Shown here: one piece after another, positions 2,859-54,474 of the stretch
Layout of the letters: each line of letters opens with the position of its first letter
How positions within the stretch are numbered: position 1 is the first letter of the stretch
Assembly (NCBI GenBank): GCA_000004695.1
Contig: CM000150.2
Location: forward strand, 96,001 to 160,000
Reading direction: 5' to 3'
DNA from: Dictyostelium discoideum
Taxonomy: Eukaryota
DNA length: 64,000 nucleotides
Made by a program: the position numbers and the translations under genes
Notes under the pieces: model-generated
Seen by the model: only the letters and a program-made list of their open reading frames with translations
The model's database searches: none
What the model was told of the DNA's origin: nothing

Positions 2859-3108
2859 CTACTGTAGCAAAGCACGTTTGAAATATAAATTAAATACCAC
2901 AACTAGAACGTTAGGGTTACGTATAGCATACTCAATTAACCAGCGAGTTTTCCCAGTTTGACGTGAGCCACTGAAGCCAATTGTAAACAACTCTCGTAAA
3001 TGACATGCCTTAGTACCGCCAAGATTATTAGCAGCGCTACGCATTATTAATCGCAATACTTTTCTCAAGTTCTTGAACTATCGCATCATAATCAATTGTA
3101 GACGTCAT
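2859..3108 (-). pseudogene. Terminase-like P-loop ATPase gene fragment (Walker A GFSGSRQTGKT); frame broken relative to the paralog at 29994-30140
   Basis: SRQxGKT Walker-A motif of the type seen in phage large-terminase ATPases; RBS tgaggtaaaaaaatcATG; the paralog has an uninterrupted N-terminus MTSTTTIDYDAIEKSIAINNERSAANNLGGTKACQLRELFTIGLSGSR. Confidence 0.45.
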
Positions 3109-3120
3109 GATTTTTTTACC

Positions 3121-3288
3121 TCATTTATTTAAGTGGTTGTATGAACTCACAGGGTTATAGTCCTCATAAACAGGAAGTAGTAGACCAGGTGCATTAGGCA
3201 TTGTTATTAATACACGCTGCCCACGCACATAAGGTTGGTTGTTAACATATTTAAAATCAGTTGCCACATAGCCTTTTGGAATTTCCAT
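3121..3288 (-). CDS. Small phage-like gene (55 aa, MEIPKGYVATDFKYVNNQPYVRGQRVLITMPNAPGLL...); its stop overlaps the RBS of the downstream terminase-like gene
   Basis: RBS aagagga 9 nt upstream of ATG; conserved paralog at about 30158-30327. Confidence 0.5.
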   Translation of the reverse strand: MEIPKGYVATDFKYVNNQPYVRGQRVLITMPNAPGLLLPVYEDYNPVSSYNHLNK

Positions 3289-3549
3289 GGTAAACTAATC
3301 CTCTTAATAGGGGACCGATGGCGGGTTGACCGTCAGACTTCTACAACACCCAACCACGTAATATCGGAGTGCTTCTGTCATTGTTATTTTATTTTTAGAT
3401 GCTACGCGGTTGATTGTGGTTTACTTACACCAAAGTGTAAGCGTCGGTTATTTGCTGGCATACTTTCAGCCACGTCCCAAGTCTCCAATTCACCGCCTTC
3501 CTGCTATTAATGGTGCCTAATGACGGACATTCATCTCAAAATAAAACCA

Positions 3550-3585
3550 GGAGGGGTAAAACCCTCCTATATACTAATCTTACGG
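3550..3585. terminator. Bidirectional intrinsic terminator-like hairpin (AGGAGGGgtaaaaCCCTCCT flanked by A-run and T-run)
   Basis: GC stem with U-tract on both strands; repeated in the paralog at 30572-30606. Confidence 0.5.
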
Positions 3586-3889
3586 ACGTGGTGATATCGA
3601 ATACCACATTCTGTAATTTGGATCATGCTGGGTGTTATTTAATGTTTTGGCTATTGCTATAACCGACCGAGCTACTGTGTTTCCACAGAAATGACTCGAA
3701 CCATCGACCCACAGCGTGTATATAGTGAGCTGGTGGTTTAACCTCCCAAGGGCGGTGTTCGACTATTCGTCAAACGAAGACAAGCTTTTTAATTTAATTA
3801 AACTACCACACCATCTTCAATTTCGATTTTGGTAGAAGAGTTAGATTCAGTTAATCAATGTTGGCTTCGAAATCCAGAATCTCTTTTTC

Positions 3890-4078
3890 CTACTGCTTGA
3901 TTACTTTGCTGATCTCCAGCGGCTGATAACGTTCGATAACTGGATTAACGAACACAGCAATGGAAGCTTCATCGGCTTTCTTAGTACCGTTGAATGCTTC
4001 GGTGCGCGCGGTATTTTCACGCTGGTCAAAATTGGAGTTAGCGGTAACGTTGTGACGAGATATCGATTCGTAGTTCAC
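3890..4078 (-). CDS. Hypothetical phage-like protein (62 aa)
   Basis: ORF in the GC-rich island on the same strand as its neighbours; no recognisable motif. Confidence 0.3.
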   Translation of the reverse strand: MNYESISRHNVTANSNFDQRENTARTEAFNGTKKADEASIAVFVNPVIERYQPLEISKVIKQ

Positions 4079-4130
4079 TTTCTAAGCTTTGACAATATCG
4101 CGTTTCTCGCCTAATGCATTATGTGCATGT

Positions 4131-4761
4131 ACAGCAAAGAAAAATCCACATTTAAAGCAAATTTAAAGCAAAGTTGATTTAAATTGGATTTAAATTGAAT
4201 TTAAAGCCGGGTTTAAAAAATTCATTTTCAAGGTAATTTTTAAGATAATTTTAAGATATTTAAAAATGCCTTTAAAATTTATTTTAAAATAATTTTAAAG
4301 AGGATTTAAAGTTGATTTAAAGTAGATTTAAAGTGAATTAAAATTTCCTTTAAATATAAATTTAAGGTTTTTAATAAAAAACATCTAATTTTAGATCAAA
4401 AAAATGGGGATAAAATATTCTATCATTTTTAAATTATCATCAAAGCAATCAAATGGTGTAATGGTTGATGAGACTACCCTTTGATTGATGAGACTACCCT
4501 TTTGGTAAATTTTCAAAAATTTCAAAAAAAAATTTTATAAAATTTATCCGTTAAATAACGGCTTCGAACTCCGGACCTCGCTTTTAAAGCCATTAAAAAG
4601 CTAATTCCTAAGGTAATTATAAAGGTAATTTATAAGGTGGTTTTAAAGTAACCTTAAAAATTACCTTTAAAATTACCTTAAAAATTGCTTTTGTACAGGA
4701 CTTTAAATTCGCTTTAAATTAAATTTAAATTTGCTTTAAAGGTGGTTTTTCTTTCACTGTG
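4131..4761 (+). mobile_element. TIR hairpin element (B-type end ...A-type end; left terminus 2 bp short), inserted into the 3' end of a phage-like gene
   Basis: Termini ACAGCAAAGAAAAATCCAC ... GGTGGTTTTTCTTTCACTGTG; internal tRNA-like/hairpin core. Confidence 0.7.
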
Positions 4762-5026
4762 TAGTGTATTCTTTGCCAGCTACGGTAATAAGCGTACTAG
4801 CGTTGGACAATATCACTTTAGCAAGGATATCTTCACGCACACGAATGATATCTTGTAAACCATGGTAGTTTTCTTTGATCGCATCAGAAACCGCCCCAAC
4901 GGAATCATTGAAACCAGCTTCTTGGGCGAATTCATCAGTACCGCGAGTTAGTGAAATAAGCATCAGACCGTTGGACATGGATTTAACCGTGGCCAATGTA
5001 CGGGTAATTGAAATCTTAGTAGCCAT
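4754..5026 (-). CDS. Phage-like gene (MATKISITRTLATVKSMSNGLML...) truncated at its 3' end by the TIR element; the last codons read into the TIR
   Basis: RBS aaaggaaaaggaaatataATG; the ORF stop lies inside the CACTGTG terminus. Confidence 0.45.
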   Translation of the reverse strand: MATKISITRTLATVKSMSNGLMLISLTRGTDEFAQEAGFNDSVGAVSDAIKENYHGLQDIIRVREDILAKVILSNASTLITVAGKEYTTQ

Positions 5027-5157
5027 TATATTTCCTTTTCCTTTATACGTTATAGACAGAGTGCCGAACCCTGTTTTAGAGAACGGTAGAGGCTTTCACT
5101 CTTAGGCTTTCATCGATCCCCGTTCGTGACCGTTTAGCGATTTCTTTAGATCTTAAT

Positions 5158-5247
5158 TGGTAGAGAATTAGAGATTCGAACTCTAGGAGCGGTTTCCCGC
5201 CCGACGGTTTTTAAGACCGTTACCTTGAACCACTCGGACAATTCTCC
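5158..5247 (-). tRNA. Class-II tRNA-Leu (anticodon UAA), long variable arm, discriminator A73, genomically encoded CCA end
   Basis: Manual fold: acceptor GGAGAAT/ATTCTCT, anticodon stem ACGGT/ACCGT with loop CUUAAAA, T-arm TAGAG-TTCGAAT-CTCTA, 3' ACCA; close to the bacterial tRNA-Ser/Leu body GGAAGTGTGGCCGAGCGGTTGAAGG... Confidence 0.7.
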
Positions 5248-5336
5248 AATTGGGTGACACCCATTAGAATTTCACGTAGCTCTATAGCTATTACAGTCAA
5301 TACTAACACTTCACAAAAAGGCCTGGTTAACCCCTA

Positions 5337-6014
5337 CTGATTGAACTTAGGTTGTCTTAGAGTTCCTACCAGGAAAACTGCAACTGATATCATTGTTTGG
5401 TGATTACAAAAAAGACCAGTGTTATTGGCTGGTCTTTTTGAGTTATACGATACCGTTCTCTTTACGATAACGGAATATTTTTGATCTATCGATATTAAGC
5501 ATTTCTGCAATTACTTAATCGCTATTACCTCACCAAGCAGTTCGATAATCATGGCAATATGTTCTGGGTTAAGTTGTGTCTTTTGGCTTTTACTTAATGC
5601 TGATCTACCAACACAGCGAAGAAAAAACCACCTTTAAATTCGCTTTAAATTAAATTTAAATTTGCTTTAAAGTCCCGAATTAAAGCAATTTTAAAGGTAA
5701 TTTTAAAGCGAATTTAAAGGTGGTTTTTTCTTCGCTGTGTTGGTAGATCAGCATTAAGTAAAAGCCAAAAGACACAACTTAACCCAGAACATATTGCCAT
5801 GATTATCGAACTGCTTGGTGAGGTAATAGCGATTAAGTAATTGCAGAAATGCTTAATATCGATAGATCAAAAATATTCCGTTATCGTAAAGAGAACGGTA
5901 TCGTATAACTCAAAAAGACCAGCCAATAACACTGGTCTTTTTTGTAATCACCAAACAATGATATCAGTTGCAGTTTTCCTGGTAGGAACTCTAAGACAAC
6001 CTAAGTTCAATCAG
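5337..6014. repeat. Near-perfect ~275-bp-arm palindrome of phage-like sequence centred on a 128-bp mini TIR element
   Basis: 5337-5611 is the reverse complement of 5740-6014, read directly. Confidence 0.85.
5612..5739. mobile_element. Mini TIR element (internally deleted, two termini back to back) at the palindrome centre
   Basis: CACAGCGAAGAAAAAACCACCTTTAAA ... TTTAAAGGTGGTTTTTTCTTCGCTGTG. Confidence 0.7.
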
Positions 6015-6644
6015 TAAAACACTAAAAATTACCTTTAAAATTACCTTTAAAATTACCTTTTTAATCGCTTTAAAAGCGAGGTCCTGAGTTCGAAGCCGTT
6101 ATTTAACGGATAAATTTTTTAAAATTTTTTTTTTTAATTTTTCAAAAATTACCAAAAGGGATTCGATCCCCCGACCCTCTATCAAAGGGTAGTCTCATCA
6201 ACCATTACACCATTTGATTGCTTTGATGAAAATTTAAAAATGATAGAATATTTTATCCCCATTTTTTTGTTCTAAAATTAGATCTTTTTTATTAAAAACC
6301 TTAAATTTATGTTTAAAGGAAATTTAAATTCACTTTAAATCTACTTTAAATCTACTTTAAATCCTATTTAAAATTAATTTAAAATAAATTTTAAAGGTAT
6401 TTTTAAATATCATAAAAATTATCTTAAAAATTACCTTAAAAATCACCTTTAAAATCACCTTTAAAATCACCTTTATAAATTTATTTTAAAGCAAATTTTA
6501 AAGGCATTTTTAAATATCTTAAAAATTACCTTAAAAATTACCTTAAAAATGAATTTTTTAAACGCGGCTTTAAATTCAATTTAAATCCAATTTAAATCAA
6601 CTTTTCTTTAAATTTGCTTTAAAGGTGCATTTTTCTTTGCTGTG
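6015..6644 (-). mobile_element. TIR hairpin element, truncated on the palindrome side; B-type terminus at 6624-6644
   Basis: Internal modules and tRNA-like core in reverse orientation; terminus GGTGCATTTTTCTTTGCTGTG. Confidence 0.7.
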
Positions 6645-6693
6645 AAGAGATCCAGTTCTACCATTCTGGCGATGCTTGCTTGCCGATCAGTCA

Positions 6694-6810
6694 TTAACGA
6701 ATCTTCTTCAGTAACTGAGTACGAAGAATTGGATTAGCATCTCGCTTGGCTTTATCGGCCGCTGCAGTGCGTTTTGTACAGTTACCAAAATCAAAAGATT
6801 TACATGGCAT
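6694..6810 (-). CDS. Small basic protein (38 aa, MPCKSFDFGNCTKRTAAADKAKRDANPILRTQLLKKIR) with a strong GGAGG-type SD; paralog at 47855-47971
   Basis: Two copies about 90% identical, both with an RBS; hairpin after the stop in the 47972 copy. Confidence 0.5.
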   Translation of the reverse strand: MPCKSFDFGNCTKRTAAADKAKRDANPILRTQLLKKIR

Positions 6811-7054
6811 GACATCCCTCCATTGACTTAAAAGAAAAATAAGGGGATAACATGTGTTCTGGTCAAGCCATACCCTTAATGAGGGTGTTAATCTTCGTCA
6901 TAATAATTTTGATCTTTTGGAGTACTTGCATGCAGAGAGGTTATGGGGACCATCCCTACACATTATATCCGGTACTGTGTAAAACTTTACATATCAATAG
7001 ATCAAAAATAAGAGGATGTAGTACATCCCCTCTTTCAATTAAGGCAACATGACC

Positions 7055-7319
7055 CTAGTCAAGTAGCGCATTGTGTCACGTAATAGGGATACACGCCCGC
7101 GATTAAGATCAACAATACCGTAGTTCAAATGAATAGAATCGTTATATATACCTTCTGCGTTAAGCCTGAAGTTCAAACGCGAACGGAGCGTAGTATGAAC
7201 CTGACCTTCACTTCTGAAAATGTGTACTCGTTATCTAACGCCACATCAAAGGCAGGCCAACCTGTTAATGCTGTTGATCTTATCCCAATTACGTGAAACA
7301 ATGCGCTACTTGGCTAAGG
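7055..7319. repeat. ~30-bp inverted repeat (CAAGTAGCGCATTGTKTCACGTAAT) flanking about 200 bp in phage-like island C
   Basis: 7055-7084 is the reverse complement of 7288-7319. Confidence 0.5.
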
Positions 7320-7384
7320 TCATGGTGGCCAATACAACTCCACCTGTAAACCTTTCACCAACCACTTGTCATTGACTAATAACT

Positions 7385-7706
7385 AGTCAGTTTCGTTGTT
7401 CTTGACGTTGGGTGATACAGTAATACCTTCAGGTGTACCGAATGGAGCGACATTCACTTGGAAGTTAGATGGAAAATTGAATATTTTATTCAATTCGGAT
7501 ATCTCATCTTTCTTGAGGATACATTCTTATTTGACGAGTAAACCTTGATTGTTTACCATATGTTTGTACTGACCAAGTAAGGTATCGGATAATTGATAAT
7601 CGGTTGGAACATCGACATTGTTACTTGATTCATCTTCACTTTGTTCATTCTCAGTGTCAGAGTCATTATGAGAAGGTTGGCTACGTGAATTGGTATTAGA
7701 TGAGAA
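7385..7706 (-). mobile_element. DIRS ORF1 fragment with an internal deletion, abutting phage-like DNA at a small palindrome (TGACTAATAACTAGTCA)
   Basis: Matches ORF1 N-terminal coding sequence of other copies. Confidence 0.75.
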
Positions 7707-8222
7707 TTAATAATTTAATTTATTAAATTACATTTATATTAAATATATATAAATATATTATGAATAAAATTTATTTATATTATCATATATATATATATAT
7801 TATGAATAACATTTATTTATTTGAATTTCCCAAATATTTAAGATAATTTTTTAGAATGTTCTAGAACATTCGAAGAATAAAAAATTTTCGAAAGAAAAGT
7901 AAAAATTTCGAACCGGCACAATGACGCGATCATTGCGCAAGGTCGAAAAACTGAAAAATTCCGAACCGACACTATGCACAAAGTTGTGAAGGGTCGAAAA
8001 CTCTTATTTTTTTGAGTTTTGCTAAATTTTTAAGAAAATAAAAACGTATAAATAGTGGCACTAAAAACTAAAACAATTTGATTTATTTTATTTGGGAATT
8101 CCTCCTATATATATTTAAGATACACACACACACAAATTTTATACAAATAATTATTTCTCTTTATTAATTTTTAATATTATTATTTTTTCTCATATTATAA
8201 TTTTAGATATCAACAATAAAAT

Positions 8223-9230
8223 ATGTCTACCACTGTTAATAATAATGATGCCTCTAGTAGTAGTACCTCTGCCTCTAATAGCGCTGAATCCTTTGATTTA
8301 AGAATGAAATCAATGGAGGATCAAATCAACAACCTTTCCTTAGCCTTTACAAGATTCATGAAAGAACCTATGTTCTCTTCTAATACCAACTCACGTAGCC
8401 AACCTTCTCATGATAACTCTGACACCGAGAATGAACAAAGTGAAGATGAATCAAGTAACAATGTCGATGTTCCAACCGATTATCAATTATCCGATACCTT
8501 ACTTGGTCAGTACAAACATATGGTAAACAATAAAGGTTTACTCGTCGAAGAAGAATGTATCCTCAAGAAAGATGAGATATCCGAATTGAATAAAGTATTC
8601 AACTTTCCATCTAACTTCCAAGTGAATGTCGCTCCATTCGGTACACCTGAAGGTATTACTGTATCATCCAACGTCAAGAACAATGATACTGATTTGTTGA
8701 TTGTCGAAAAGCGAATCAACGATAGCTTGAAACCTTTGCTTCTCATGTCAAGTATGTTATCATCTGATAGCTCTAATGTCGATGTAGAACTTATTAGTTA
8801 CTTAACTCAGAGTGCAATCGTCTTAGCCGTTAACGCTCAAGCATCGCTTAGTCGTGTCCGTCGTAACAACATCGCTAAAGAAATCTATGGTTCTGAAGTA
8901 CTCTTACCAATTAAGATCAAGGATACACCAAAGATGTTTGATGAAACTGAAACTGAACGTGTAAGAAAGCTAGCCAAGTCAATCAGAAAGAACAACGAAG
9001 CAAAACAATCATTGTTAAAATTGAATTATCATTCCAAGCCCAATGTCAAGAAATCAGTTAACTCAAGTGGTAATAACACTACAGGAAACAGTAGTAATAG
9101 TAAATCCAGTAGTGGGAGTAATGGCCGATCTAACAACTTCAATGGATCACCAAGTAATGTTGCATCAGGTAGCAACAATACCAAGTCTGCCAACGGTACC
9201 AACAACCGTTTTCAGAAGAACAAGAAGTAA
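8223..9230 (+). CDS. DIRS ORF1 (gag-like, 335 aa)
   Basis: Full-length ORF conserved across copies. Confidence 0.8.
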   Translation: MSTTVNNNDASSSSTSASNSAESFDLRMKSMEDQINNLSLAFTRFMKEPMFSSNTNSRSQPSHDNSDTENEQSEDESSNNVDVPTDYQLSDTLLGQYKHMVNNKGLLVEEECILKKDEISELNKVFNFPSNFQVNVAPFGTPEGITVSSNVKNNDTDLLIVEKRINDSLKPLLLMSSMLSSDSSNVDVELISYLTQSAIVLAVNAQASLSRVRRNNIAKEIYGSEVLLPIKIKDTPKMFDETETERVRKLAKSIRKNNEAKQSLLKLNYHSKPNVKKSVNSSGNNTTGNSSNSKSSSGSNGRSNNFNGSPSNVASGSNNTKSANGTNNRFQKNKK

Positions 9231-12144
9231 ACTTACCAGTAGGTGGACGTCTGTTCCACCACAAACAAGTTTGGAAAGAATTGGGTCTTCCAAACTTTTG
9301 TCAAGAGGTCGTAAATGGATTAAAAGTCCATCTACTTCCAAACTTCAAGCCGATGCCAAACCCAATTCCGATTTCAATTCCAGAGGGTCCAAAATCAGAT
9401 TGCATCACAAAGGAAGTACAAGACTTGTTATTAGACGATGCCATCGAACAAGTACTTCCAAACCGTTATTCAAAGCGCGTTTTTTACTCCAACGTGTTTA
9501 CGGTTCCAAAACCTGGAACGAATCTACATCGTCCAGTTCTCGATTTAAAAAGGTTAAACACTTACATCAACAACCAATCATTCAAGATGGAAGGAATCAA
9601 GAATCTACCATCAATGGTCAAACAAGGTTATTACATGGTAAAACTCGATATCAAGAAAGCTTACCTCCACGTTTTAGTAGATCCGCAATACAGAGACTTA
9701 TTTCGCTTCGTGTGGAAAGGTTCGCACTACCGTTGGAAAACAATGCCGTTCGGGTTATCGACAGCTCCTCGTATCTTTACAATGTTGTTAAGACCTGTAC
9801 TTCGAATGTTGAGAGATATCAACGTATCCGTCATCGCATACTTGGACGATCTATTAATCGTCGGTTCAACAAAAGAAGAATGTTTATCCAACCTCAAAAA
9901 GACAATGGACTTACTTGTCAAACTAGGTTTCAAGTTAAATCTAGAAAAGAGTGTTCTCGAACCAACTCAATCAATTACATTTCTCGGATTACAAATCGAT
10001 TCGGTATCAATGAAGCTTCTTGTTCCCAAAGAAAAGAAGAAAAGTGTCATCAAGGAAATAAGAAACTTTTTAAAACTAGATTGTTGCTCCCCAAGAAAGC
10101 TTGCTGGTTTAAAAGGAAAGCTAATCGCACTGAAAGATGCAGTCATCCCTTTCAGACTTTACACTCGTCGAACAAACAAGTTTCACTCTCAGTGTCTGAC
10201 TCTAGCCAATGGAGATTGGGATCAATCATTCCCCATTCCTCAAGAGGTCAAGTCAGAGATTTCACATTGGTTAACAGTTCTAAACCAATGGAATGGAAAA
10301 GAAATCAGTCTGTTTCCAAGTTACGACTATGTTCTTACAACCGATGCCTCGGAATCAGGTGCAGGTGCCACACTCAAGAAAGGAAACAAGGTAATCAAAA
10401 CTTGGTCATTCCAGTGGTCAACAACTCAATCAAACATGTCGTCAAATCGTCGAGAAATGCTCGCGCTGCTAATGGCCTATCAAGCGCTATGTCAGAAACT
10501 GAACAACTGCAAGCTGAAGATCCAAACCGACAATACTACCACTCTCTCATACATCAATCGCCAGGGTGGTCAGATACAAGATCTCTCAGTTCTGTTCGAA
10601 CAACTTTGGAAACAATGCCTCAAGAAGAAAGTGAACTTGATTGGAGAGCATATTCCAGGATTCTTCAATGTAAAAGCCGACCACCTCAGTCGTCTTTCAG
10701 AGATGAATCACAAATCATCGACCAGAGTAATCAAGAGTTACATCTGGCAACTGAAGAAGGAAGTGTTCAATCGCATCCAACTTCAATTCGGTCAAATACA
10801 GATGGATCTGTTCGCATCTCACCTCAACCATCAAACGAACAACTACTCAACAATAAGAATGAATGCACTCAACCTCGATTGGAGTCAATGGAAGCAATGT
10901 CTGGCCTTTCCACCACCCATTCTTTTGCCTTCTATCCTGGAGAAGATGAACTCATCCAGTTCGAAGAAGGTTTCTATAATACTGATCTTCCCAATCTGGA
11001 GATCAGCAACTTGGTATCCGATGATTCAAGCACAAGTTCCTCGTCATCATCGTCACATGTTTCCTCAAGTACTGGGAACATTCCAAGAAGTATTGACCAA
11101 ACAATCAGTAGAGTCGATACCAATCCAGATTCAACAACGTTGGAAGCTGGGGATTATTCAACTTTCCAATCTCATGTAATGTCCTTCGCTCGTACAACAA
11201 ATACAAAAACAGCTGAGCTGTTAATGAAGTCATGGGAACCTTCAACTCTCAAAGTATATAGCTCCAGTTATACAAGATTCCGCAATTTCTGTACTTTGAA
11301 CTCTTTGAATCCAGCAAACATTACCTTAGTTGTTTTCATGGATTATCTTACACATCTATTCAAACACAAACCTCCGTTAGCTTTCTCAACTATTAACGGT
11401 CATCGATCTATGTTGAATCAGTTGTTACTCCTTAGGAATCAAACTGATATTGTTAATGATCCATTCATTACAAGAATTATGACTGGTATTCACAAGTTGC
11501 GTCCTTCATCTGCAAAGTATAAAGAGATATGGGATGCAAATCAAGTATTCAAGCACTTATCTACTATCAAAGTCATCCCCAAGTACACATACACTGCGCT
11601 ATTAAACAAGACACTTGTACTCTGTAAAATGTTTGGTTTAGCAAGATCATCAGACTTGGTGAAGTGGTCGTTCAAAGGTCTCATTATTACTCCTGACTCA
11701 ATCAAAGGTCCCGTTATTAATGCTAAAGAACAAAGAAGTGGTATTGTTTCAATCTTAGAATTAACATCGTTAGATGATACTAACTCTCAAGTGTGCCCTG
11801 TTCGCCACCTTGCAACATACCTTAGAGCATCTAAAGGAAGAAGAAAGCCCCATTCGGGTGACTCTGTCTTTATTAAGAATGAAGGTGAACCGCTCCAAGT
11901 TAATGATATTAATTCAATTGTACTATCAACACTCTCAAAGTCAGGTATTGATATTGTCAAGTTCAAATCTCACTCTACCCGTTCCGCTATGGCTTCTCTG
12001 CTGTTGTCCAATAACGTTCCGTTCCACGTTGTCAAAAAGATGGGTCGTTGGAAATCAAACGATACTGTAGATACCTTCTACGATAAAAGAATCATTGGTG
12101 AAAAATCTGGTGGTTTCTTAAATACTGTCGTCCAAATTTCATAA
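9043..12144 (+). CDS. DIRS long overlapping ORF; the C-terminal ~320 aa is a tyrosine recombinase (R..HxxR..Y), the N-terminal ~700 codons overlap the RT ORF in another frame
   Basis: RSSDL, KSHSTRSAMAS and GRWKSNDTVDTFY catalytic-residue context; the long overlap is kept open in every near-full-length copy. Confidence 0.8.
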   Translation: MSRNQLTQVVITLQETVVIVNPVVGVMADLTTSMDHQVMLHQVATIPSLPTVPTTVFRRTRSKLTSRWTSVPPQTSLERIGSSKLLSRGRKWIKSPSTSKLQADAKPNSDFNSRGSKIRLHHKGSTRLVIRRCHRTSTSKPLFKARFLLQRVYGSKTWNESTSSSSRFKKVKHLHQQPIIQDGRNQESTINGQTRLLHGKTRYQESLPPRFSRSAIQRLISLRVERFALPLENNAVRVIDSSSYLYNVVKTCTSNVERYQRIRHRILGRSINRRFNKRRMFIQPQKDNGLTCQTRFQVKSRKECSRTNSINYISRITNRFGINEASCSQRKEEKCHQGNKKLFKTRLLLPKKACWFKRKANRTERCSHPFQTLHSSNKQVSLSVSDSSQWRLGSIIPHSSRGQVRDFTLVNSSKPMEWKRNQSVSKLRLCSYNRCLGIRCRCHTQERKQGNQNLVIPVVNNSIKHVVKSSRNARAANGLSSAMSETEQLQAEDPNRQYYHSLIHQSPGWSDTRSLSSVRTTLETMPQEESELDWRAYSRILQCKSRPPQSSFRDESQIIDQSNQELHLATEEGSVQSHPTSIRSNTDGSVRISPQPSNEQLLNNKNECTQPRLESMEAMSGLSTTHSFAFYPGEDELIQFEEGFYNTDLPNLEISNLVSDDSSTSSSSSSSHVSSSTGNIPRSIDQTISRVDTNPDSTTLEAGDYSTFQSHVMSFARTTNTKTAELLMKSWEPSTLKVYSSSYTRFRNFCTLNSLNPANITLVVFMDYLTHLFKHKPPLAFSTINGHRSMLNQLLLLRNQTDIVNDPFITRIMTGIHKLRPSSAKYKEIWDANQVFKHLSTIKVIPKYTYTALLNKTLVLCKMFGLARSSDLVKWSFKGLIITPDSIKGPVINAKEQRSGIVSILELTSLDDTNSQVCPVRHLATYLRASKGRRKPHSGDSVFIKNEGEPLQVNDINSIVLSTLSKSGIDIVKFKSHSTRSAMASLLLSNNVPFHVVKKMGRWKSNDTVDTFYDKRIIGEKSGGFLNTVVQIS
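9281..11179 (+). CDS. DIRS reverse transcriptase / RNase H ORF (632 aa)
   Basis: YLDDLLIVG (YxDD), RNase H TDASESGAGA, NVKADHLSR motif. Confidence 0.85.
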   Translation: MGLPNFCQEVVNGLKVHLLPNFKPMPNPIPISIPEGPKSDCITKEVQDLLLDDAIEQVLPNRYSKRVFYSNVFTVPKPGTNLHRPVLDLKRLNTYINNQSFKMEGIKNLPSMVKQGYYMVKLDIKKAYLHVLVDPQYRDLFRFVWKGSHYRWKTMPFGLSTAPRIFTMLLRPVLRMLRDINVSVIAYLDDLLIVGSTKEECLSNLKKTMDLLVKLGFKLNLEKSVLEPTQSITFLGLQIDSVSMKLLVPKEKKKSVIKEIRNFLKLDCCSPRKLAGLKGKLIALKDAVIPFRLYTRRTNKFHSQCLTLANGDWDQSFPIPQEVKSEISHWLTVLNQWNGKEISLFPSYDYVLTTDASESGAGATLKKGNKVIKTWSFQWSTTQSNMSSNRREMLALLMAYQALCQKLNNCKLKIQTDNTTTLSYINRQGGQIQDLSVLFEQLWKQCLKKKVNLIGEHIPGFFNVKADHLSRLSEMNHKSSTRVIKSYIWQLKKEVFNRIQLQFGQIQMDLFASHLNHQTNNYSTIRMNALNLDWSQWKQCLAFPPPILLPSILEKMNSSSSKKVSIILIFPIWRSATWYPMIQAQVPRHHRHMFPQVLGTFQEVLTKQSVESIPIQIQQRWKLGIIQLSNLM

Positions 12145-12600
12145 TATATATATATATATGATAATATAAATTAAAAATTTAATTTATTAAATTATATTTT
12201 ATATTAAATATATATATATATATTAGTCCCATCCCACCCGCCCTTAGTCGGAATTCCATAAATCAAATTGTTTTAGTTTTTAGTGCCACTATTTATACGT
12301 TTTTATTTTCTTAAAAATTTAGCAAAACTCAAAAAAATAAGAGTTTTCGACCCTTCACAACTTTGTGCATAGTGTCGGTTCGGAATTTTTCAGTTTTTCG
12401 ACCTTGCGCAATGATCGCGTCATTGTGCCGGTTCGAAATTTTTACTTTTCTTTCGAAAATTTTTTATTCTTCGAATGTTCTAGAACATTCTAAAAAATTA
12501 TCTTAAATATTTGGGAAATTCAAATAAATAAATGTTATTCATAATATATATATATATATTTAATATAAAATATAATTTAATAAATTAAATTTTTAATTTA

Positions 12601-17146: not shown

Positions 17147-17460
17147 TTAATTCAGCATAATTTGGTTTGATGGAGTGAAAATTTGTAATGTCTTCTTGTT
17201 TTCTTAATGTACCTGATTTGCAAATATATAAACCATCTATTGGATTGTCACATGTGTGACATGCATATTCATTTGAATTATGTCCATTAAGTTTACACGA
17301 TGCTCTAAATTCTGGAATATCCATTGTTAGTCCAAACGGTACAACATCTATTTGTTCATTTTCAATAATTAAATTAAACCCATTACCAATAAAAGATGAA
17401 AACAATGCCTAATGGTTTAATGAAAATTAAGTAACCAATCATATGGTACTACAAATAATA
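17147..17460 (-). pseudogene. Middle part of the same Cys-rich gene-family copy (…ENEQIDVVPFGLTMDIPEFRASCKLNGHNSNEYACHTCD…AELN), cut at 17460 by the second TIR family
   Basis: ORF 17142-17405 is homologous to 57529-57700 and 63600-63860. Confidence 0.6.
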
Positions 17461-18188
17461 CACAGGGGCGAAAAAAAATACTTAAAAGCATCTTTAAAGT
17501 AGGAACGTAAATAGTACTATTATAAAGTATACTTAATAAGTATATTTATTAAGTATACTTATTAAGTGTACTTATTAAGTATATTTATTAAGTATATTTA
17601 TTAAGTATACTTATTAAGTATATTTATTAAGTATATTTATTAAATATATTTATTAAATATATTTATTAAGTATATTTATTAAGTATATTTAATAAGTATA
17701 TTTATTAAGTATATTTATTAAGTATATTTATTAAGCATAATTATTAAGTATAATTATAAAATATAATTATTAATTAAAATTATTAAGTATAATTAATAAG
17801 GGTAATTATAAAGTTCACTTAATAAGAATACTTAAAAAGTTAAAAATAACATTTTATAATAATAATTTAAAATAAATTTAAAAAAAAAAAAAAAAAAAAC
17901 TAAAAAAAAAAAAAAGAATTAATTAAAAAGTAAAGTATTTGAAATCAGAAATTTTTTTTATTTAATTGTGAAAATTCTAAGGGTATTAATATGTTGACTT
18001 TAACAAGGGTCATACAACATTTATAATTGACTAATTTGAAAAGCAGAACTTTATTTCCATTATTATTTGTACCAAAAGCATTTACTTTACAGGTTCAAAT
18101 AAAAGAAGGGACAACCTAAAATATAATTGTTTTTTAAATTATATTAATCTCTTTATTTTATATTATTATTTTTTTTTTTCTTTGAACC
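17461..18188 (+). mobile_element. Second TIR family, left arm: terminus CACAGGGGCGAAAAAAAATACTTAAAAGCATCTTTAAAGTAGGAACG, satellite, ~300-bp unique part
   Basis: Reverse complement of 47170-47768. Confidence 0.7.
17528..17810. repeat. 13-bp tandem satellite (TTAAGTATAYTTA)n inside the second TIR family arm
   Basis: More than 20 tandem units read directly; mirrored at 47400-47700. Confidence 0.8.
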
Positions 18189-21330: not shown

Positions 21331-21612
21331 CTATAATCTCTTCGGTGTAACTTTTCTTCCTGATCTTGTTGTTTTAATTTGTAAACTAAGATCAAGTTCA
21401 TCATCATCACTTGAAGTATTTTGATTTCTTGATTTTCTTTTCTTTGATTGGTTCATTTGATTTGAGTTGGAGTTTTGTTGTCTTGGAGGAGTTGGTTGCA
21501 ATGTTTGGGACCTTTGAACTTCTTGGGAGAGTGGAGGTGACACAATTGGCTCAACGGCTTCTGTAGTTACATTCTCTCTTTCTCTTCTAGAGTTCAATTG
21601 TTTCTTCTGCAC
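21331..21612 (-). CDS. C-terminal tail ORF of pol (basic/Ser-rich), frame-shifted relative to integrase
   Basis: ORF track entry; position as in Ty3/gypsy C-terminal extensions. Confidence 0.35.
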   Translation of the reverse strand: MQKKQLNSRRERENVTTEAVEPIVSPPLSQEVQRSQTLQPTPPRQQNSNSNQMNQSKKRKSRNQNTSSDDDELDLSLQIKTTRSGRKVTPKRL

Positions 21613-21613
21613 G

Positions 21614-23614: not shown

Positions 23615-23617
23615 CTT

Positions 23618-24637: not shown

Positions 24638-25342
24638 TTATATATTAAAGAAGTTATGAATTTCATTGTTAACTTGTATATTGATTTGTTCAACAAACTC
24701 TTCTTTGACGTCAAGTAGCGGTAAGTTAATCTTGGCTTTGGTTTTGTGAACGTGGTTCTTCATATCTTTTGAAATCAACCTCTTATTGATTAAACTAACA
24801 TTACTTCCAGTATCGAGAATTAATTTGAATTGTTTTTTTTTGGAATGAGAGTTAATTATAATCTTGGGTTTATCCATGTTTTCTCTGTTTGGAACGATTA
24901 AACATTTTAGAGTCGGAATGAGAGCAGTATCACTTGTACCAGTACTATGTAATAATGAGATGATTGGTTTGTTTGTTTCTTTATCGAATTTAATTGTGTA
25001 AAGCAATTCATCTTCTTCATCGTTAATTAATTCTTTACCAGAATTTAATATCTTTGGACGATTGAATATGTTTACAGTATAGTTTTTATCTTGAACATTT
25101 GTTAACTCTGTTGGAGTATTAAATTCAATCTTCTGTGGTGTATACTTCATCTCTGATTCCACAGCTTTTGGAATTGGAACGTTTGTATCAGGAACTAGTT
25201 TTATACCATATGAGTCTTTGACGTATTCTTTAAGTTTGTTGATGTTTTTATGAACATCATGTTGCTGGCTTTGTTGATGTAACTGTTTAACAATGTTTTG
25301 ATTATAAAAAGAGTTAAGAGTATAAAGTGAATCTTTGTTCAC
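24638..25342 (-). CDS. Aspartic protease (LILDTGSNVSLI)
   Basis: DTG active-site motif. Confidence 0.75.
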   Translation of the reverse strand: MNKDSLYTLNSFYNQNIVKQLHQQSQQHDVHKNINKLKEYVKDSYGIKLVPDTNVPIPKAVESEMKYTPQKIEFNTPTELTNVQDKNYTVNIFNRPKILNSGKELINDEEDELLYTIKFDKETNKPIISLLHSTGTSDTALIPTLKCLIVPNRENMDKPKIIINSHSKKKQFKLILDTGSNVSLINKRLISKDMKNHVHKTKAKINLPLLDVKEEFVEQINIQVNNEIHNFFNI

Positions 25343-25432
25343 TGGGTAATCATTATCCTCAAGGTGATGATATTGTGAAATTTTATAATTTTTATTTAAA
25401 ATCTTTGACCTGGACTCATCACCTTCATCGAG

Positions 25433-25852
25433 TCATTGTTGCTTTTTGGCTAATGGACCTGGATTGGCTTTGGCATCGACCGGATCAATTCTACATGTAG
25501 ATGTGGAGTGATTTGATTTACCACAATTGAGACAGTAGCCTTTGCTTTGACGGTAAACGATGAAACTGCTTCTTATCTTTTTGAGGTCTACCTTAGAGTC
25601 TTTTCTTATTTCGGGTAATATTGCAGCTCTAATCTTATCAGCTTGAGCATCAAAGGAATTCCTGTTATGAGAGTTATGATTTGGAGTAGCATGATTCTTT
25701 TTTAATGGAAACTTCTCATCAGTATTCGATGCAGAATCGGAAGGTCTTCTTCTCGAGAACTTATCAGCATTGTTAAGAACCAACTCGGTGATGGCTTCAC
25801 GACACTCGGTGATATCGGTTTGTAACCAGTCTGGTACGACCATCTTTAACAA
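25433..25852 (-). CDS. Skipper-like gag nucleocapsid with CCHC zinc knuckle (CLNCGKSNHSTSTC)
   Basis: CX2CX4HX4C motif. Confidence 0.7.
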   Translation of the reverse strand: MLKMVVPDWLQTDITECREAITELVLNNADKFSRRRPSDSASNTDEKFPLKKNHATPNHNSHNRNSFDAQADKIRAAILPEIRKDSKVDLKKIRSSFIVYRQSKGYCLNCGKSNHSTSTCRIDPVDAKANPGPLAKKQQ

Positions 25853-25879
25853 AGCAAGGATATTATTATCTAAAATTGA

Positions 25880-26567
25880 TCATAGATACTCTAATTGAAC
25901 TTCAGCAGTACCATGGATGAGATACACCGGATTAATTACATTGTGGTAACTCATAATGGCTTCGATGTTATTTATAACATCTTGGGCTGAGTAGCAGTTA
26001 CGATGGTTAATAGCTTCGACTACTTTAGTATTGGCAGCTTCGTAGTCAGTTTTGAATGGAACCAAAGTCTTGGATCTAAAGTTACGGTGGATTAGCTTCT
26101 TCAATGTTTCACCTTCAATTTTATCGTTGTTCTTAACTGATTCATTGTGGGTAGGTTGAAGCAATTGAAATAATTCATTTGATGCAGCACCATTGTCCAC
26201 AATGGTCTTCAAGGTTGGTTCAACACCATTCTGGGAGCAGTGGATGGTAAAAAGATTCATGAAGATGACAGCAGTGGCAGCATTTTTTAAAGCATCAATG
26301 GTTTTAGCTTCAATGGAATTGGTCTTTGATTTCTTTGGCACTTTCTCTCTGACTTCGACGTCGGATACATCAGTGCTTTCAGTTGAAATAAATTTCATCA
26401 TCAACTTCAGTGGGACGAAGAGTCTTTTTTGATTTTACTTGAACAGTAATAGCATCATGGGAGGCGGTTGTCACTTCAGCGGCACGTTTGGCGGTGGAAG
26501 ACACTTTGGCTTTACGGATGGCTTTCTTTGAAGGAGTAGTAGTTGATGACATGACTTTCACCAACAA
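25880..26567 (-). CDS. Skipper-like gag capsid region (two overlapping ORFs)
   Basis: ORFs 26379-26567 and 25880-26404. Confidence 0.55.
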
Positions 26568-26714
26568 TTATATATAAAATTTATTAAATATAATTTAATT
26601 TTATAATTTAATTTTATAATTTAATTTACATAATTTAATTATATAATTTAATTTAATTTATTTAATTTAATTTAATTTAATTTTTAATTAAATAATTAAA
26701 TATAAGTATTAATA

Positions 26715-26950
26715 TATGTTAACTGTTATTCCACTAATATATTTTTATTGTGGTGTCTTTATATTATTTAATTGATAATAAATATTATCTTAAATTATTT
26801 TAATTATAACAATGCATCAATATAACTGTTATTCCACTAATAATTTATATTGTGGTGTATTTATTTAACTGTTATTCCACTAATAATTTATATTGTGGTG
26901 TCTTTATTTAACTGTTATTCCACTAATAATTTATAGTGGTGTCTTTGTAT
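26715..26950. repeat. ~40-bp tandem repeats (ACTGTTATTCCACTAATAATTTATATTGTGGTGTCTTTATTTA) in the Skipper-like 5' leader
   Basis: Four direct copies. Confidence 0.7.
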
Positions 26951-27617
26951 TTGAGCATTATTATTAAATTAATTGATACAATCTTGTTTTATATTACTTT
27001 ATAAAAGATGCATGTTTACAATGTGAGTAGGAAGTGTCGTTGTACCGCCTAAGCAGTACAGCGTTAATCTTGCAAACAGAAGGGCCATTGTAATGCATTT
27101 TTATTTTGTTTTAAATACTACTGTTATTCCTCTAATCTGAAGAGTCGACTTCTTCATCATGAGGTGTCATTGTATACGAAATATAAGGATTGTATCTAAT
27201 TATTTGTTTTAATGTATTTGTTTTATGTTAAAATTAGAAAAAAAAAGTGTAAAAGTCACTCACACTAATCTTCAATCCATTGTCACATTTGTTTAATCTT
27301 TAATCAAACAGTCCAATCTTTAAAGTAATGTTTTTTTAAAATGAAGGATAGAAAGAGTGAAAGACTAATATCATAAAAGTAAACATACATAAAACAGATA
27401 ATTAAAAGTAAGGGCGTTATGAAAATCAGAATTTTTATTATTATTTAAATTTTAATTTAATTTTATTTAATTTAATTTTTTATTTTTCAACTGAAAAAAT
27501 AAAAAATTAAAAAATAAAAATTAAAATTAAATGAAATATTTTTACATGGAGATGCGAATTTGTTACGTTGTTGAGCTCATACAAACTTTAAATTAATTTA
27601 GTTTTGAGTCTCTAACA

Positions 27618-27713
27618 TCTAGAACATTCTAAAAAATTATCTTAAATATTTGGGAAATTCAAATAAATTAATGTTATTCATAATATATATATATATTTAA
27701 TATATAATATAAT
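27618..27713. mobile_element. Remainder of the DIRS ITR into which the Skipper-like element inserted (target gaatgttct|agaacattc)
   Basis: ITR core continues exactly after the right LTR. Confidence 0.75.
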
Positions 27714-29940
27714 TTAATAAATTAAATTTTTAATTGATTGAGTTGGTTCGAGAACACTCTTTTCTAGATTTAACTTGAAACCTAGTTTGACAAGTAAGTC
27801 CATTGTCTTTTTGAGGTTGGATAAACATTCTTCTTTTGTTGAACCGACGATTAATAGATCGTCCAAGTAAGCGATGACGGATACTTTGATATCTCTCAAC
27901 ATTCGAAGTACAGGTCTTAACAGCATTGTAAAGATACGAGGAGCTGTCGATAACCCGAACGACATTGTTTTCCAACGGTAATGCGAACCTTTCCACAAGA
28001 AGCGGAATAAGTCTCTGTATTGCGGATCTACTAACACGTGGAGTAGGCTTTCTTGATATCGAGTTTTACCATGTAATAACCTTGTTTGACCATTGACGGT
28101 AGATTCTTGATTCCTTCCATCTTGAATGATTGGTTGTTGATGTAAGTGTTTAACCTTTTTAGATCGAGAACTGGACGATGTAGATTCGTTCCAGGTTTTG
28201 GAACCGTAAACACGTTGGAGTAAAAAACGCGCTTTGAATAACGGTTTGGAAGTACTTGTTCGATGGCATCGTCTAATAACAAGTCTTGTACTTCCTTTGT
28301 GATGCAATCTGATTTCGGACCCTCTGGAATTGAAATCGGAATTGGGTTTAGCATCGGCTTGAAGTTTGGAAGTAGATGGACTTTTAATCCATTTACGACC
28401 TCTTGACAAAAGTTTAGAAGACCCAATTCTTTCCAAACTTGTTTGTGGTGGAACAGACGTCCACCTACTGGTAAGTTTACTTCTTGTTCTTCTGAAAACG
28501 GTTGTTGGTACCGTTGGCAGACTTGGTATTGTTGCTACCTGATGCAACATTACTTGGTGATCCATTGAAGTTGTTAGATCGGCCATTACTCCCACTACTG
28601 GATTTACTATTACTACTGTTTCCTGTAGTGTTATTACCACTTGAGTTAACTGATTTCTTGACATTGGACTTGGAATGATAATTCAATTTTAACAATGATT
28701 GTTTTGCTTCGTTGTTCTTTCTGATTGATTTGGCTAGCTTTCTTACACGTTCAGTTTCAGTTTCATCAAACATCTTTGGTGTATTCTTGATCTTAATTGG
28801 TAAGAGTACTTCAGAACCATAGATTTCTTTAGCGATGTTGTTACGACGGACACGACTAAGCGATGCTTGAGCATTAACGGCTAAGACGATTGCACTCTGA
28901 GTTAAGTAACTAACAAGTTCTACATCGACAATAGAGCTATCAGATGATAACATACTTGACATGAGAAGCAAAGGTTTTAAGCTATCGTTGATTCGCTTTT
29001 CGACAATCAACAAGTCAGTATCATTGTTCTTGACGTTGGATGATACAGTAATACCTTCAGGTGTACCGAATGGAGCGACGTTCACTTGGAAGTTAGATGG
29101 AAAGTTGAATACTTTATTCAATTCGGATATCTCATCTTTCTTGAGGATACATTATTCTTCGACGAGTAAACCTTGATTGTTTACCATATGTTTGTACTGA
29201 CCAAGTAAGGTATCGGATAATTGATAATCGGTTGGAACATCGACATTGTTACTTGATTCATCTTCACTTTGTTCATTCTCAGTGTCAGAGTTATCATGAG
29301 AAGGTAGGCTACGTCTTAAATCAAAGGATTCAGCGCTATTAGAGGCAGAGGTACTACTACTAGAGGCATCATTATTATTAACAGTGGTAGACATTTTTTA
29401 TTGTTGATATCTAAAATTATAATATGAGAAAAATAATAATATTAAAAATTAATAAAGAGAAATAATTATTTGTATAAAATTTGTGTGTGTGTGTATCTTA
29501 AATATATATAGGAGGAATTCCCAAATAAAATAAATCAAATTGTTTTAGTTTTTAGTGCCACTATTTATACGTTTTTATTTTCTTAAAAATTTCGCAAAAC
29601 TCAAAAAAATAAGAGTTTTCGACCCTTCACAACTTTGTGCATAGTGTCGGTTCGGAATTTTTCGACCTTGCGCAATGATCGCGTCACTGTGCCGGTTCGA
29701 AATTTTTATTTTTCTTTCGAAAATTTTTTTTTTCTTCGAATGTTCTAGAACATTCTAAAAAATTATCTTAAATATTTGGGAAATTCAAATAAATAAATGT
29801 TATTCATAATATTAATATATATATGATAATATAAATCTTGGAATGTTTTAGAACATTCTAAAAAATTATCTTAAATATTTGGGAAATTCAAATAAATAAA
29901 TGTTATTCATAATATATATATATGATAAATTAAATTTACT
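27714..29940 (-). mobile_element. DIRS copy f: 5' ITR (29400-29940, partly duplicated), ORF1 with an internal deletion, N-terminal half of the RT ORF; truncated at 27714
   Basis: ORFs 28477-29121, 29152-29394, 28031-28426, 27714-28664. Confidence 0.8.
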
Positions 29941-29993
29941 AGAACGTTAGGGTTACGGATAGCATACTCAAATAACCAGCGAGTTTTCCCAGT

Positions 29994-30140
29994 TTAACGT
30001 GAGCCACTCAAGCCAATTGTAAACAACTCTCGTAACTGACATGCCTTAGTACCGCCAAGGTTATTAGCAGCGCTACGCTCATTATTAATCGCAATACTTT
30101 TCTCAATCGCATCATAATCGATGGTTGTCGTAGACGTCAT
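29994..30140 (-). CDS. Terminase-like gene N-terminal fragment (48 aa, uninterrupted here; cut downstream by the DIRS-f ITR)
   Basis: RBS atgaggtaaaaaatcATG; homolog of 2859-3108. Confidence 0.45.
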   Translation of the reverse strand: MTSTTTIDYDAIEKSIAINNERSAANNLGGTKACQLRELFTIGLSGSR

Positions 30141-30334
30141 GATTTTTTACCTCATTTATTTAGGTGGTTGTATGAACCCACATGGGTATAGTCCTCATAA
30201 ACAGGAGCTACTTTTGCTGGTAGACCAGGTGCATTAAGCATTGTTTTTAATACACGCTGACCACGCACATAAGGTTGGTTGCTAACATATTTTAAATCAG
30301 TTGCCACATAGCCTTTTGGAATTTCCATGGTAAA

Positions 30335-30520
30335 CTAATCCTCTAAATAGGTGACCAATGGCGGGTTTACTTCTACAACACTCAACCACGTAATGTTGGA
30401 AGTGCTTCGGTATTGTTCTTTTATTTTGAGATGCCATGCGGTTGATCGTGGTTTACTTACCCCAAAGTGTAAGTGTCGGTTATTTGCTGGCATACTTTCA
30501 GCCACTTCCCAAGTCTCCAA
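30335..30520 (-). CDS. Small phage-like gene (61 aa, TTG start); the island-A copy (3300-3480) carries an in-frame stop
   Basis: Stop overlaps the RBS of the next gene; paralog pseudogenised. Confidence 0.4.
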   Translation of the reverse strand: METWEVAESMPANNRHLHFGVSKPRSTAWHLKIKEQYRSTSNITWLSVVEVNPPLVTYLED

Positions 30521-31121
30521 TTCACCGCCGTCCTGCTATTAAGGGTGCCCAATGACGGACATCCATCTCAAAATAAAACTAGGAGGGGGTAAAACCCTCC
30601 TATATACTGATCTTACGGACGTGGTGATATCGAATACCACATTCTGTAATTTGGATCACACTGGGTGTTATTTACAATACCTAACGGACTGTATTTATCG
30701 TAGAAGGATCCCACTGTTGCGTTGCAATACCGTTAACAATCAACACTAAGCTGATTGTCCATACACTATTCTTCGTCGATGTATGATAAGGTAGGACAAT
30801 CCCATCAGCCGGTAGCTTATCCAATACAGCATCAACAATCAGCGCTTTGGACGGTGCTAAAATAAGGAACATCCGTTGTTAGCTTTGTTTTCCATATTTG
30901 GTTCACTGTCTTACAAACAAACCACCGGCATCTTTACCCTGCGTGTTACTAATAGGAATGGGGAAGGCATTCCTATTAGTAACACGCATAACTGACGTTT
31001 TCACTAGGGGCTAATACTAATTAATATTACCATGCCAGCTACGGTGTCAATCCAGTGTGTCAAATTAGTAACAGCTTTGGAGCCATCCAGATATGACGGA
31101 ACGCCTGGGCCTGAAATTTAA

Positions 31122-46024: not shown

Positions 46025-46026
46025 TG

Positions 46027-47768: not shown

Positions 47769-47854
47769 GAGATTAACACCCTCATTTAGGGGATGTCTTG
47801 ACCAGAACACAGGTTATCCCCTTATTTTTTCTTTTAATTCAATGGAGGAATGTC

Positions 47855-54452: not shown

Positions 54453-54474
54453 AGCAGATCGGCAAGATTTGCTA

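Follow-up and report, generated by a model that had tools for sequence, protein, structure and literature searches.

DNA of bacterial derivation is known as fossils in eukaryotic nuclei, with nuclear copies of mitochondrial DNA (NUMTs) and the Wolbachia inserts of insects as examples, and endogenous giant-virus elements exist in amoebal genomes. Functional genes obtained from bacteria by horizontal gene transfer (HGT) have reportedly been found in Dictyostelium discoideum. To our knowledge, the transfer of phage DNA into eukaryotic nuclear genomes has rarely been documented, and no report of jumbo-phage DNA in Dictyostelium, or of phage DNA in its centromeres, was found in the literature searched, the coverage of which was incomplete. 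Here, a stretch of 64,000 nucleotides of D. discoideum (assembly GCA_000004695.1, contig CM000150.2, positions 96,001 to 160,000 of the forward strand; hereafter the window, in whose numbering all positions are given) was analysed, and it was found to contain decayed fragments that match jumbo phages, as well as two pairs of diverged copies (islands A and A-prime, which are among these fragments, and islands B and B-prime). The phage DNA is a genuine resident of the amoeba genome, and the copies diverged without purifying selection, after they had ceased to be phage. The explanation that we favour, and hold to be moderately probable, is a single acquisition of jumbo-phage DNA followed by neutral decay, in which the copies were split early by duplication or rearrangement of the insert.

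The background GC content of the window was 18-26%, with blocks at 31-44%. Self-comparison of the window revealed a ~4.8-kb element with overlapping open reading frames (ORFs), present in many copies that were 97-98% identical to one another. The products of this repeat were a reverse transcriptase (RT), an RNase H and a tyrosine recombinase, which is the architecture of DIRS-1. The segment 20862-27617 coded for a gypsy-type RT, RNase H and integrase and was assigned to a Skipper-like retrotransposon; phage nucleotide searches returned nothing for it. It was previously reported that DIRS clusters lie at the chromosome ends and that the centromere region of chromosome 1 is made largely, yet not wholly, of transposons (PMC2665215), and that this centromere of strain AX4 is a manual reconstruction out of shotgun reads (Glöckner and Heidel 2009, PMC2665215). 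On these grounds, and because one of its ORFs is 100% identical to part of an AX4 protein (see below), the window in all likelihood represents that end of AX4 chromosome 1 where the centromere lies and DIRS-1 is abundant. The phage fragments amounted in total to ~9-11 kb, scattered between the DIRS-1 and Skipper-like retrotransposons (Table 1).

The segment 52780-56615 (the polymerase island) showed ~67% nucleotide identity to ~20 jumbo phages by blastn. Its pseudogenes corresponded to both the beta and the beta-prime parts of a split multisubunit non-virion RNA polymerase, which is a phiKZ-like trait, and to a superfamily 2 (SF2) helicase, in the order of genes 267-268-269 of the Erwinia phage AH06. 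When all 275 kb of AH06 were compared with the window by tblastx, tblastn and frameshift-aware alignment, the gene order of AH06 was found to be kept in a second block, comprising gene 217, the intergenic region, gene 219 and an upstream block (5334-2889); the interval 2889-5334, on the minus strand, was collinear with AH06 170.08-172.49 kb. The closest sequenced relatives by blastn and tblastx were Erwinia Agricanvirus phages (AH06, Desertfox and Ea35-70) and Salmonella phage vB_SalM_SA002, with amino acid identities of 50-72%. The polymerase fragment matched 175 phage records, and among the matches listed all were jumbo phages. Homology and gene order mark islands A and A-prime and the polymerase island as phage-derived and place the donor with the phiKZ-like (Chimalliviridae-type, nucleus-forming type) jumbo phages near Agricanvirus, in an unsampled lineage. 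The best live relative among 1.84 billion representative proteins was 61% identical, a scan of IMG/VR revealed nothing closely related to the polymerase fragment, and the collections searched (phage, IMG/VR and protein) contained no matching phage. A complete or functional phage was not found either: whole-window tblastx against the 275 kb of AH06 returned only the blocks noted here, with no capsid, terminase, tubulin or shell genes.

Three lines of evidence together demonstrated that this DNA is resident and not contamination, as the first-pass annotation of the window had argued against contamination from a single phage. First, a complete AT-rich element of the amoeba with terminal inverted repeats (TIRs) lay inside a phage gene, the AH06_217 homologue, which it interrupts between residues 95 and 99; the two halves of this gene were collinear. 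There were 13 TIR termini like CACAGCGAAGAAAAAACCACC in the window, and full-length copies of the element were found elsewhere in it. Second, a protein search yielded a 99%-identical product in Logan assemblies of sequencing runs. Contigs L008 (SRR26869267, 8 samples) and L009 (SRR26869246) spanned 52733-56030, with 9 read sets overall, and the junction between the DIRS-1 repeat and the phage DNA at 52779/52780 was identical in L008. Third, the genes were heavily pseudogenised. Every long phage gene was broken, and the polymerase and helicase genes carried ~13 frameshifts, 5 stops and a 131-codon deletion (in beta-prime, at 55699/55701) within 3.8 kb, or ~18 disabling lesions. The interval 55060-55720, earlier described as riddled with stops, was indeed so: beta-prime had in-frame stops at 55223, 55256, 55349 and 55553 and a frameshift at 55096. 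The polymerase fragment was truncated on one side by DIRS-1 (52779) and on the other by a TIR element (56616).

The Logan contigs shared the 131-codon deletion and most of the frameshifts and stops, and differed from the window by 12 single-nucleotide polymorphisms, two indels of 4 and 9 bp, and a microinversion of 7 bp (54901-54907 versus L008 2169-2175, TTTAGTT versus AACTAAA). The stop at 55349 was found in AX4 only. These differences are polymorphisms of an inherited locus and not errors, and the fossil of the polymerase island is still decaying within the species. As the reference differed from the independent assemblies by less than 1% over 3.3 kb, in discrete polymorphisms, the ~7% divergence between the paired copies described below does not reflect sequencing error.

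Islands A and A-prime were not identical. By self-blastn, 2885-3641 and 29925-30674 were 88.4% identical over 776 columns, and MAFFT alignment of 2885-3641 with 29936-30674 gave 668 matches and 53 substitutions (29 transitions and 24 transversions), which corresponds to 92.6% identity at aligned sites, together with 7 internal indels of 1, 8, 9, 1, 6, 12 and 2 nt. On the minus strand both copies had the order terminator, 61-codon ORF, ORF58 and P-loop gene, so the ~90% identity, gene order and shared terminator claimed at first stand. The N-terminus of the P-loop gene had been described as frameshifted in A and intact in A-prime. When its indels were polarised with AH06_219 as the outgroup, A was found to have 6-nt and 2-nt deletions, of which the 2-nt loss caused the frameshift. 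The copy in A-prime, where 29937-30140 matched amino acids 1-73 of AH06_219, proved not to be intact: it had a 12-nt deletion and a CAA>TAA change within Walker A (GSRQTGKT to GSR*TGKT), and it ended after codon 68 at a DIRS-1 terminal repeat (29935/29936). Every disabling lesion that could be polarised against AH06 was copy-specific, and none was common to A and A-prime. The stops reported for the 61-codon ORF in A were present, but nothing indicated that this ORF is a gene. Beyond 3641/30674, A stayed collinear with the phage, whereas A-prime ran into unrelated GC-rich DNA. The copy-specific transposon junctions were borne out by self-comparison and the TIR termini.

The label "terminase-like" for the P-loop gene was not supported; the gene codes for a small P-loop protein homologous to AH06_219. 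No Pfam family was found for AH06_219, and the PHROG family that the gene matches, phrog_2586, has no assigned function. In a comparison with the terminase of AH06, similarity was confined to the Walker A motif (PRQSGKTV/PRQTGKSV), with E = 0.08-0.17, and the P-loop protein has 172 amino acids compared with 731 for the terminase.

The second pair showed a similar degree of divergence. The segment 6657-6894 of B was 93.3% identical to 48008-47770 of B-prime (16 substitutions and 1 indel), and the pair of 38-aa basic ORFs first reported was confirmed; the inverted orientation of the two had gone unmentioned. B was bounded by a TIR element at 6646 and a DIRS-1 fragment at 7381, and B-prime was cut at 47769 by a different element with a CACAG-type terminus, so that the two were cut at opposite ends by different transposons.

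Nei-Gojobori counts over ORF58, the 38-aa ORF and those codons of the P-loop gene that remain in frame gave, for both pairs together, 5 differences at 98.6 synonymous sites and 20 at 327.4 non-synonymous sites, or a ratio of non-synonymous to synonymous divergence (omega) of ~1.2, an estimate built on only 25 substitutions. Values of omega ≤0.2 were rejected (p = 5e-5), and a value of 0.5 was borderline (p = 0.049). In the 38-aa ORF, all 6 of 6 differences were non-synonymous. Since omega was ~1.2 and indels had broken the reading frames, the copies must have diverged without purifying selection, after phage life. The divergence of the two pairs was nearly equal (7.4% for A/A-prime and 6.7% for B/B-prime), which argues against unrelated independent acquisitions.

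How the copies arose was less clear-cut. The earlier claim of long residence and duplication inside this genome holds for the residence; the duplication was not confirmed, as no flank and no lesion is common to the copies. In a simulation of random fragments with the observed fragment sizes from a 270-kb genome, the probability of at least 2 overlapping pairs was 0.027 and that of at least 3 was 0.005. This excess of overlap likewise speaks against unrelated independent acquisitions. The overlap and the equal age of the pairs are as expected from duplication, and multi-copy co-integration predicts the same. Lesion density was ~1 per 0.4 kb in each copy and ~5 per kb in the single-copy polymerase island. 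Because all polarisable lesions are copy-specific and no amoeba flank is shared, the split dates to about the time of acquisition. Local duplication does occur at this locus, where a 98% palindrome was found (5335-5660/5691-6016). Intragenomic duplication of A/A-prime and B/B-prime is plausible, and early duplication is only mildly favoured over co-integration.

Several observations weigh against a single acquisition with early duplication. The flanks differed on 4 of 4 sides, and no transposon insertion or post-integration lesion was common to the copies, although the power of this comparison was low. At 30675, A-prime passes without an intervening transposon into GC-rich DNA of unrelated sequence, which resembles end-joining of separate fragments, and 41 kb separate B from B-prime, whose orientations are opposite. 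The small number of substitutions behind omega counts here as well. A, A-prime, B-prime and the N-terminus of the AH06_217 homologue were not recovered from other assemblies by exact-protein look-ups, nor was ORF58 by a word-based search; the phage/host junctions of A, A-prime, B and B-prime were not found in independent assemblies, and A and A-prime rely on the manual reconstruction of the AX4 centromere (PMC2665215). Phage searches gave no homologue for 6647-7380, 30675-31117, 47770-48240 or 48500-48990.

Some of these points would be expected if several phage copies or fragments had been end-joined into a scrambled array, as happens to transfected DNA, and integrated in one event; the copies would then have been distinct phage molecules from the start and never duplicated in the amoeba. 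We consider this possible, though less probable, and it accounts for the data almost equally well. The copy-specific lesions (6-nt and 2-nt deletions in A; 12-nt deletion and nonsense codon in A-prime), the equal divergence of both pairs, the different breakpoints on both sides of each pair with B-prime in the opposite orientation, and the direct junction of phage-like segments at 30674/30675 all fit such a co-integration, as does island 3, which represents the neighbourhood of A but continues into a different gene. However, the overlaps simulated above would be rare among random fragments unless the input was sub-genomic or highly multi-copy, the power to detect common lesions is low with ~0.4 kb of verified coding overlap, and the region demonstrably duplicates DNA locally, as the palindrome indicates.

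It is very improbable that there were two acquisitions, whether the sources were two related phages or paralogous regions within a single phage, with the 7% divergence predating the transfer. The accessory regions of jumbo phages are mosaic, and the neighbours of A-prime and island 3 are unlike those of A, as this would predict. But the omega of ~1.2 with rejection of ≤0.2, and the uniformly non-synonymous differences in the 38-aa ORF, are not what divergence between live phages would leave; the copies are separated by a frameshift, a nonsense codon and multi-nucleotide indels, and the AH06 intergenic region between genes 217 and 219 is single-copy in AH06. Mis-assembly, in which phage clones from the library were stitched into the chromosome 1 centromere, is hardly credible even though that centromere was hand-built from shotgun reads (PMC2665215) and A and A-prime were not re-found elsewhere, since a complete amoeba TIR element sits within a phage gene, the same DIRS-1/phage junction and lesions recur with real polymorphisms in Logan assemblies of other read sets, the genes are too decayed for a live contaminant, and the collections searched held no matching phage.

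For the favoured single acquisition, we infer the following course. An amoeba ancestral to D. discoideum would have phagocytosed prey infected by a virulent jumbo phage of a Gram-negative bacterium, and phage DNA would have reached the amoeba nucleus and been joined into the gene-poor, DIRS-1-rich centromeric end of chromosome 1, where it was presumably tolerated. The insert then decayed neutrally by frameshifts, stops and deletions, while DIRS-1, the Skipper-like element and small TIR elements cut it and local rearrangement reshuffled its pieces. A/A-prime and B/B-prime would be overlapping pieces of two phage neighbourhoods that parted when the DNA was acquired or shortly afterwards; early duplication or rearrangement of the insert is the most likely cause, and each copy would then have decayed independently to ~7% divergence. 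In this course the entry route, the single acquisition and the mode of duplication are inferences, whereas the decay and the activity of the transposons are evident from the sequence. No evidence of function was found in any phage-derived part.

Table 1. Phage-derived and putatively phage-derived features of the window, with associated TIR elements
Feature	Position	Strand	Evidence or remark
Phage fragment A	2616..4130	-	tblastx/tblastn versus AH06; phrog_2586, phrog_1491; terminator scan; blastn block
P-loop pseudogene, AH06_219 homologue (phrog_2586)	about 3108-2616	-	2-nt frameshift
ORF58 in A	3288-3121	-	
Intrinsic-terminator hairpin in A	3569-3548	-	terminator scan
45-nt conserved intergenic block	3751-3795	-	blastn, 88.9% identity to AH06
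AH06_217 homologue (phrog_1491), C-terminal half, aa 99-197	4135-3854	-	2 stops
Amoeba AT-rich TIR element, 631 bp, termini CACAGCGAAGAAAAAACCACC	4131..4761	.	inside AH06_217-homologous gene
Fragment A, continued	4762..5610	-	AH06 collinearity
AH06_217 homologue, N-terminal half, aa 1-95	5026-4763	-	tblastn versus AH06
tRNA-Leu(TAA)	5158-5247	-	Rfam
Upstream block	5253-5334	-	matches AH06 170081-170166
Mini TIR element (130 bp)	5611-5740	.	97.7% match to 59988-60117
Inverted duplicate of phage segment 5335-5610	5741-6016	.	palindrome; identical 58-aa ORFs on opposite strands
Island B, GC-rich, bacterial in style	6657..7380	-	composition, gene structure, context
38-aa basic ORF in B	6694-6810	-	
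Phage fragment A-prime	29936..30674	-	self-blastn, AH06 match
P-loop pseudogene N-terminus in A-prime	30140-29936	-	nonsense codon, 12-nt deletion, DIRS-1 truncation
ORF58 in A-prime	30328-30152	-	
61-codon ORF in A-prime	30520-30335	-	open here, stops in A
Terminator hairpin in A-prime	30602-30580	-	same as in A
GC-rich segment (42% GC) immediately adjoining A-prime	30675..31117	.	alignment break 30674/30675; composition weakly phage-like
Island 3	40754..42260	-	two non-coding blocks collinear with AH06
Island B-prime	47770..48240	+	paralogue of B in inverted orientation
38-aa ORF in B-prime	47855-47971	+	
GC-rich island (44% GC)	48500..48990	.	ends at DIRS-1 repeat; phage-like composition
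Three-pseudogene phage fragment, AH06 order 267-268-269	52780..56615	+	blastn, tblastx, frameshift-aware alignment
Non-virion RNA polymerase beta (AH06_267 aa 96-701)	52782-54440	+	63% identity; 10 frameshifts, 1 stop
Beta-prime (AH06_268 aa 7-424, 556-648)	54463-55979	+	61-72% identity; 2 frameshifts, 4 stops
SF2 helicase (AH06_269 aa 1-182)	56111-56615	+	1 frameshift

The composition, bacterial-style gene starts and context of B, B-prime, 30675-31117 and 48500-48990 suggest that these segments too may be of phage origin, and for 30675-31117 this is probably the case. PHROG and Pfam scans of the ORFs in these islands were empty, nor did the 127-aa and 84-aa ORFs match any sequence when compared with all phages by tblastn. 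A hairpin with a perfect ~20-bp stem (TGCGTGTTACTAATAGGAATG ... CATTCCTATTAGTAACACGCA) was observed near 30940-30988 in the segment 30675-31117. The segment 48500-48990 was considered as the absent N-terminus of polymerase beta, lying across DIRS-1, and this was rejected, as its alignment score equalled the mean of shuffled sequences.

Several features were observed around island A and in island 3. The tRNA-Leu(TAA), directly upstream of the AH06_217 homologue, is of bacterial type with a long arm, scored 50.7 bits in Rfam and still looks intact amid broken flanking genes. No tRNA was detected by ARAGORN at the syntenic position of AH06, and the Rfam scan of the window gave no other match. Further upstream, the arms of the palindrome 5335-6016 were 98% complementary with a 30-nt spacer, and phage DNA lay on either side of the mini TIR element; this structure is either a foldback duplication of recent origin or something introduced by the manual assembly. 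In island 3, the blocks 42153-42186 and 42041-42085 were collinear with AH06 171749-172072 and were followed by a frameshifted ORF beginning MAVKFSTLPAAQ, unlike the gene in A. This ORF had no PHROG, Pfam or phage match, and the phage nucleotide search of 40754-42260 was empty. The short non-coding blocks at 3751-3795, 42041-42085 and 42153-42186 showed 83-89% nucleotide identity to AH06 171324-171368 and 171749-172072, while the proteins around them are only about 40-60% identical to AH06. One block contains the hairpin GGCTGTCTTGNGGAGACAA, and the conserved blocks between genes 217 and 219 could be a phage regulatory element or a small RNA. The AH06_218 gene annotated in this region of AH06 looks spurious. 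An ORF of the window was 100% identical to part of the AX4 hypothetical protein DDB_G0267332 (176 aa; 40754-41782, minus strand), whose model joins three frames of a frameshifted foreign ORF via presumed introns and is probably an annotation artefact over a pseudogene.

The AT-rich TIR family (0.13-0.7 kb) was also represented at 4131-4761, 6023-6646, 44420-46027, 56616-57334 and 58903-62373, with CACAGCG termini and internal arrays of ~12-nt period (TTTAAAG-type). Some of the elements contain tRNA-like fragments, e.g. at 6075-6110 and 6160-6220. The ends of phage islands coincide unusually often with TIR termini (4131, 4761, 5611, 5740, 6646 and 56616). It was considered whether TIR elements had carried phage pieces as cargo, which was rejected because the points at which B and B-prime meet such termini differ and are not homologous. 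For the element at 4131-4761, comparison of the 13 termini did not bear out a TA target-site duplication, and none could be resolved. Arrays of 13-nt tandem repeats (ATACTTAATAATT-like) were observed at 17435-17900 and 47319-47720, within an AT-rich repeat (17461-18178/47116-47768, 84% identical) of which the copy at 47116-47768 adjoins island B-prime with its terminus CCACAGGGGCG. The DIRS-1 copy at 7773-12230 was 100% identical over 4458 nt to one in another Dictyostelium assembly (GCA_054883475.1, CM142509.1 56023-63030), although the left flanks of the two differ. Such identity suggests that transposition or gene conversion took place very recently, or that the strains have one and the same element in common.

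The locus provides a concrete, datable case in which a bacterivorous amoeba took up and fixed DNA of its prey's viruses, and in which a transposon-built centromere tolerates phage DNA. As neutrally evolving markers, the fossils can be used to follow how the centromere rearranges and to derive mutation spectra for a genome of extreme AT content. At least one annotated hypothetical protein of AX4, DDB_G0267332, would be a gene model over a frameshifted foreign pseudogene, and, as the donor lineage is unsampled, jumbo phages may occur in the soil bacteria on which Dictyostelium feeds. More speculatively, and in our estimate improbably, the fragments might be what can still be seen of a much larger jumbo-phage genome, at one time nearly complete, that was acquired before the discoideum strains diverged; rearrangement driven by transposons would later have distributed its pieces over one or several centromeres. 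If so, phage DNA would be a structural, possibly small-RNA-producing component of amoeba centromeric heterochromatin.

Compared with AH06, the other Agricanvirus phages and SA002, the locus has the same order of split polymerase beta and beta-prime followed by the SF2 helicase, and it shares with AH06 the second syntenic block from AH06_217 through the intergenic region to AH06_219, including a 45-nt intergenic element of 89% identity. In contrast to these phages, the window has ~9-11 kb, scattered, of a ~270-kb genome, located in a eukaryotic chromosome, and nearly all genes with a recognisable phage homologue are broken. Like NUMTs and Wolbachia inserts, it is foreign DNA in a nuclear chromosome that evolves neutrally, has lost its coding capacity, has been entered by transposons of the host and was plausibly duplicated later; unlike them, its donor was a virulent bacteriophage that neither resides in nor infects the amoeba, and its site is a retrotransposon-built centromere. 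With endogenous giant-virus elements it has in common that DNA of a large virus was fossilised in an amoeba genome, fragmented and duplicated, but giant viruses infect the amoeba, whereas the host of this phage would be the amoeba's bacterial prey. The bacterial HGT genes of D. discoideum are likewise prokaryote-derived sequences in the nuclear genome, yet they are intact, expressed and located on chromosome arms, while the sequences described here are pseudogenes in a centromeric cluster. The phenomenon therefore groups with dead inserts of the NUMT and Wolbachia kind and with endogenous viral elements, from which it is set apart by the type of its donor and by its location.

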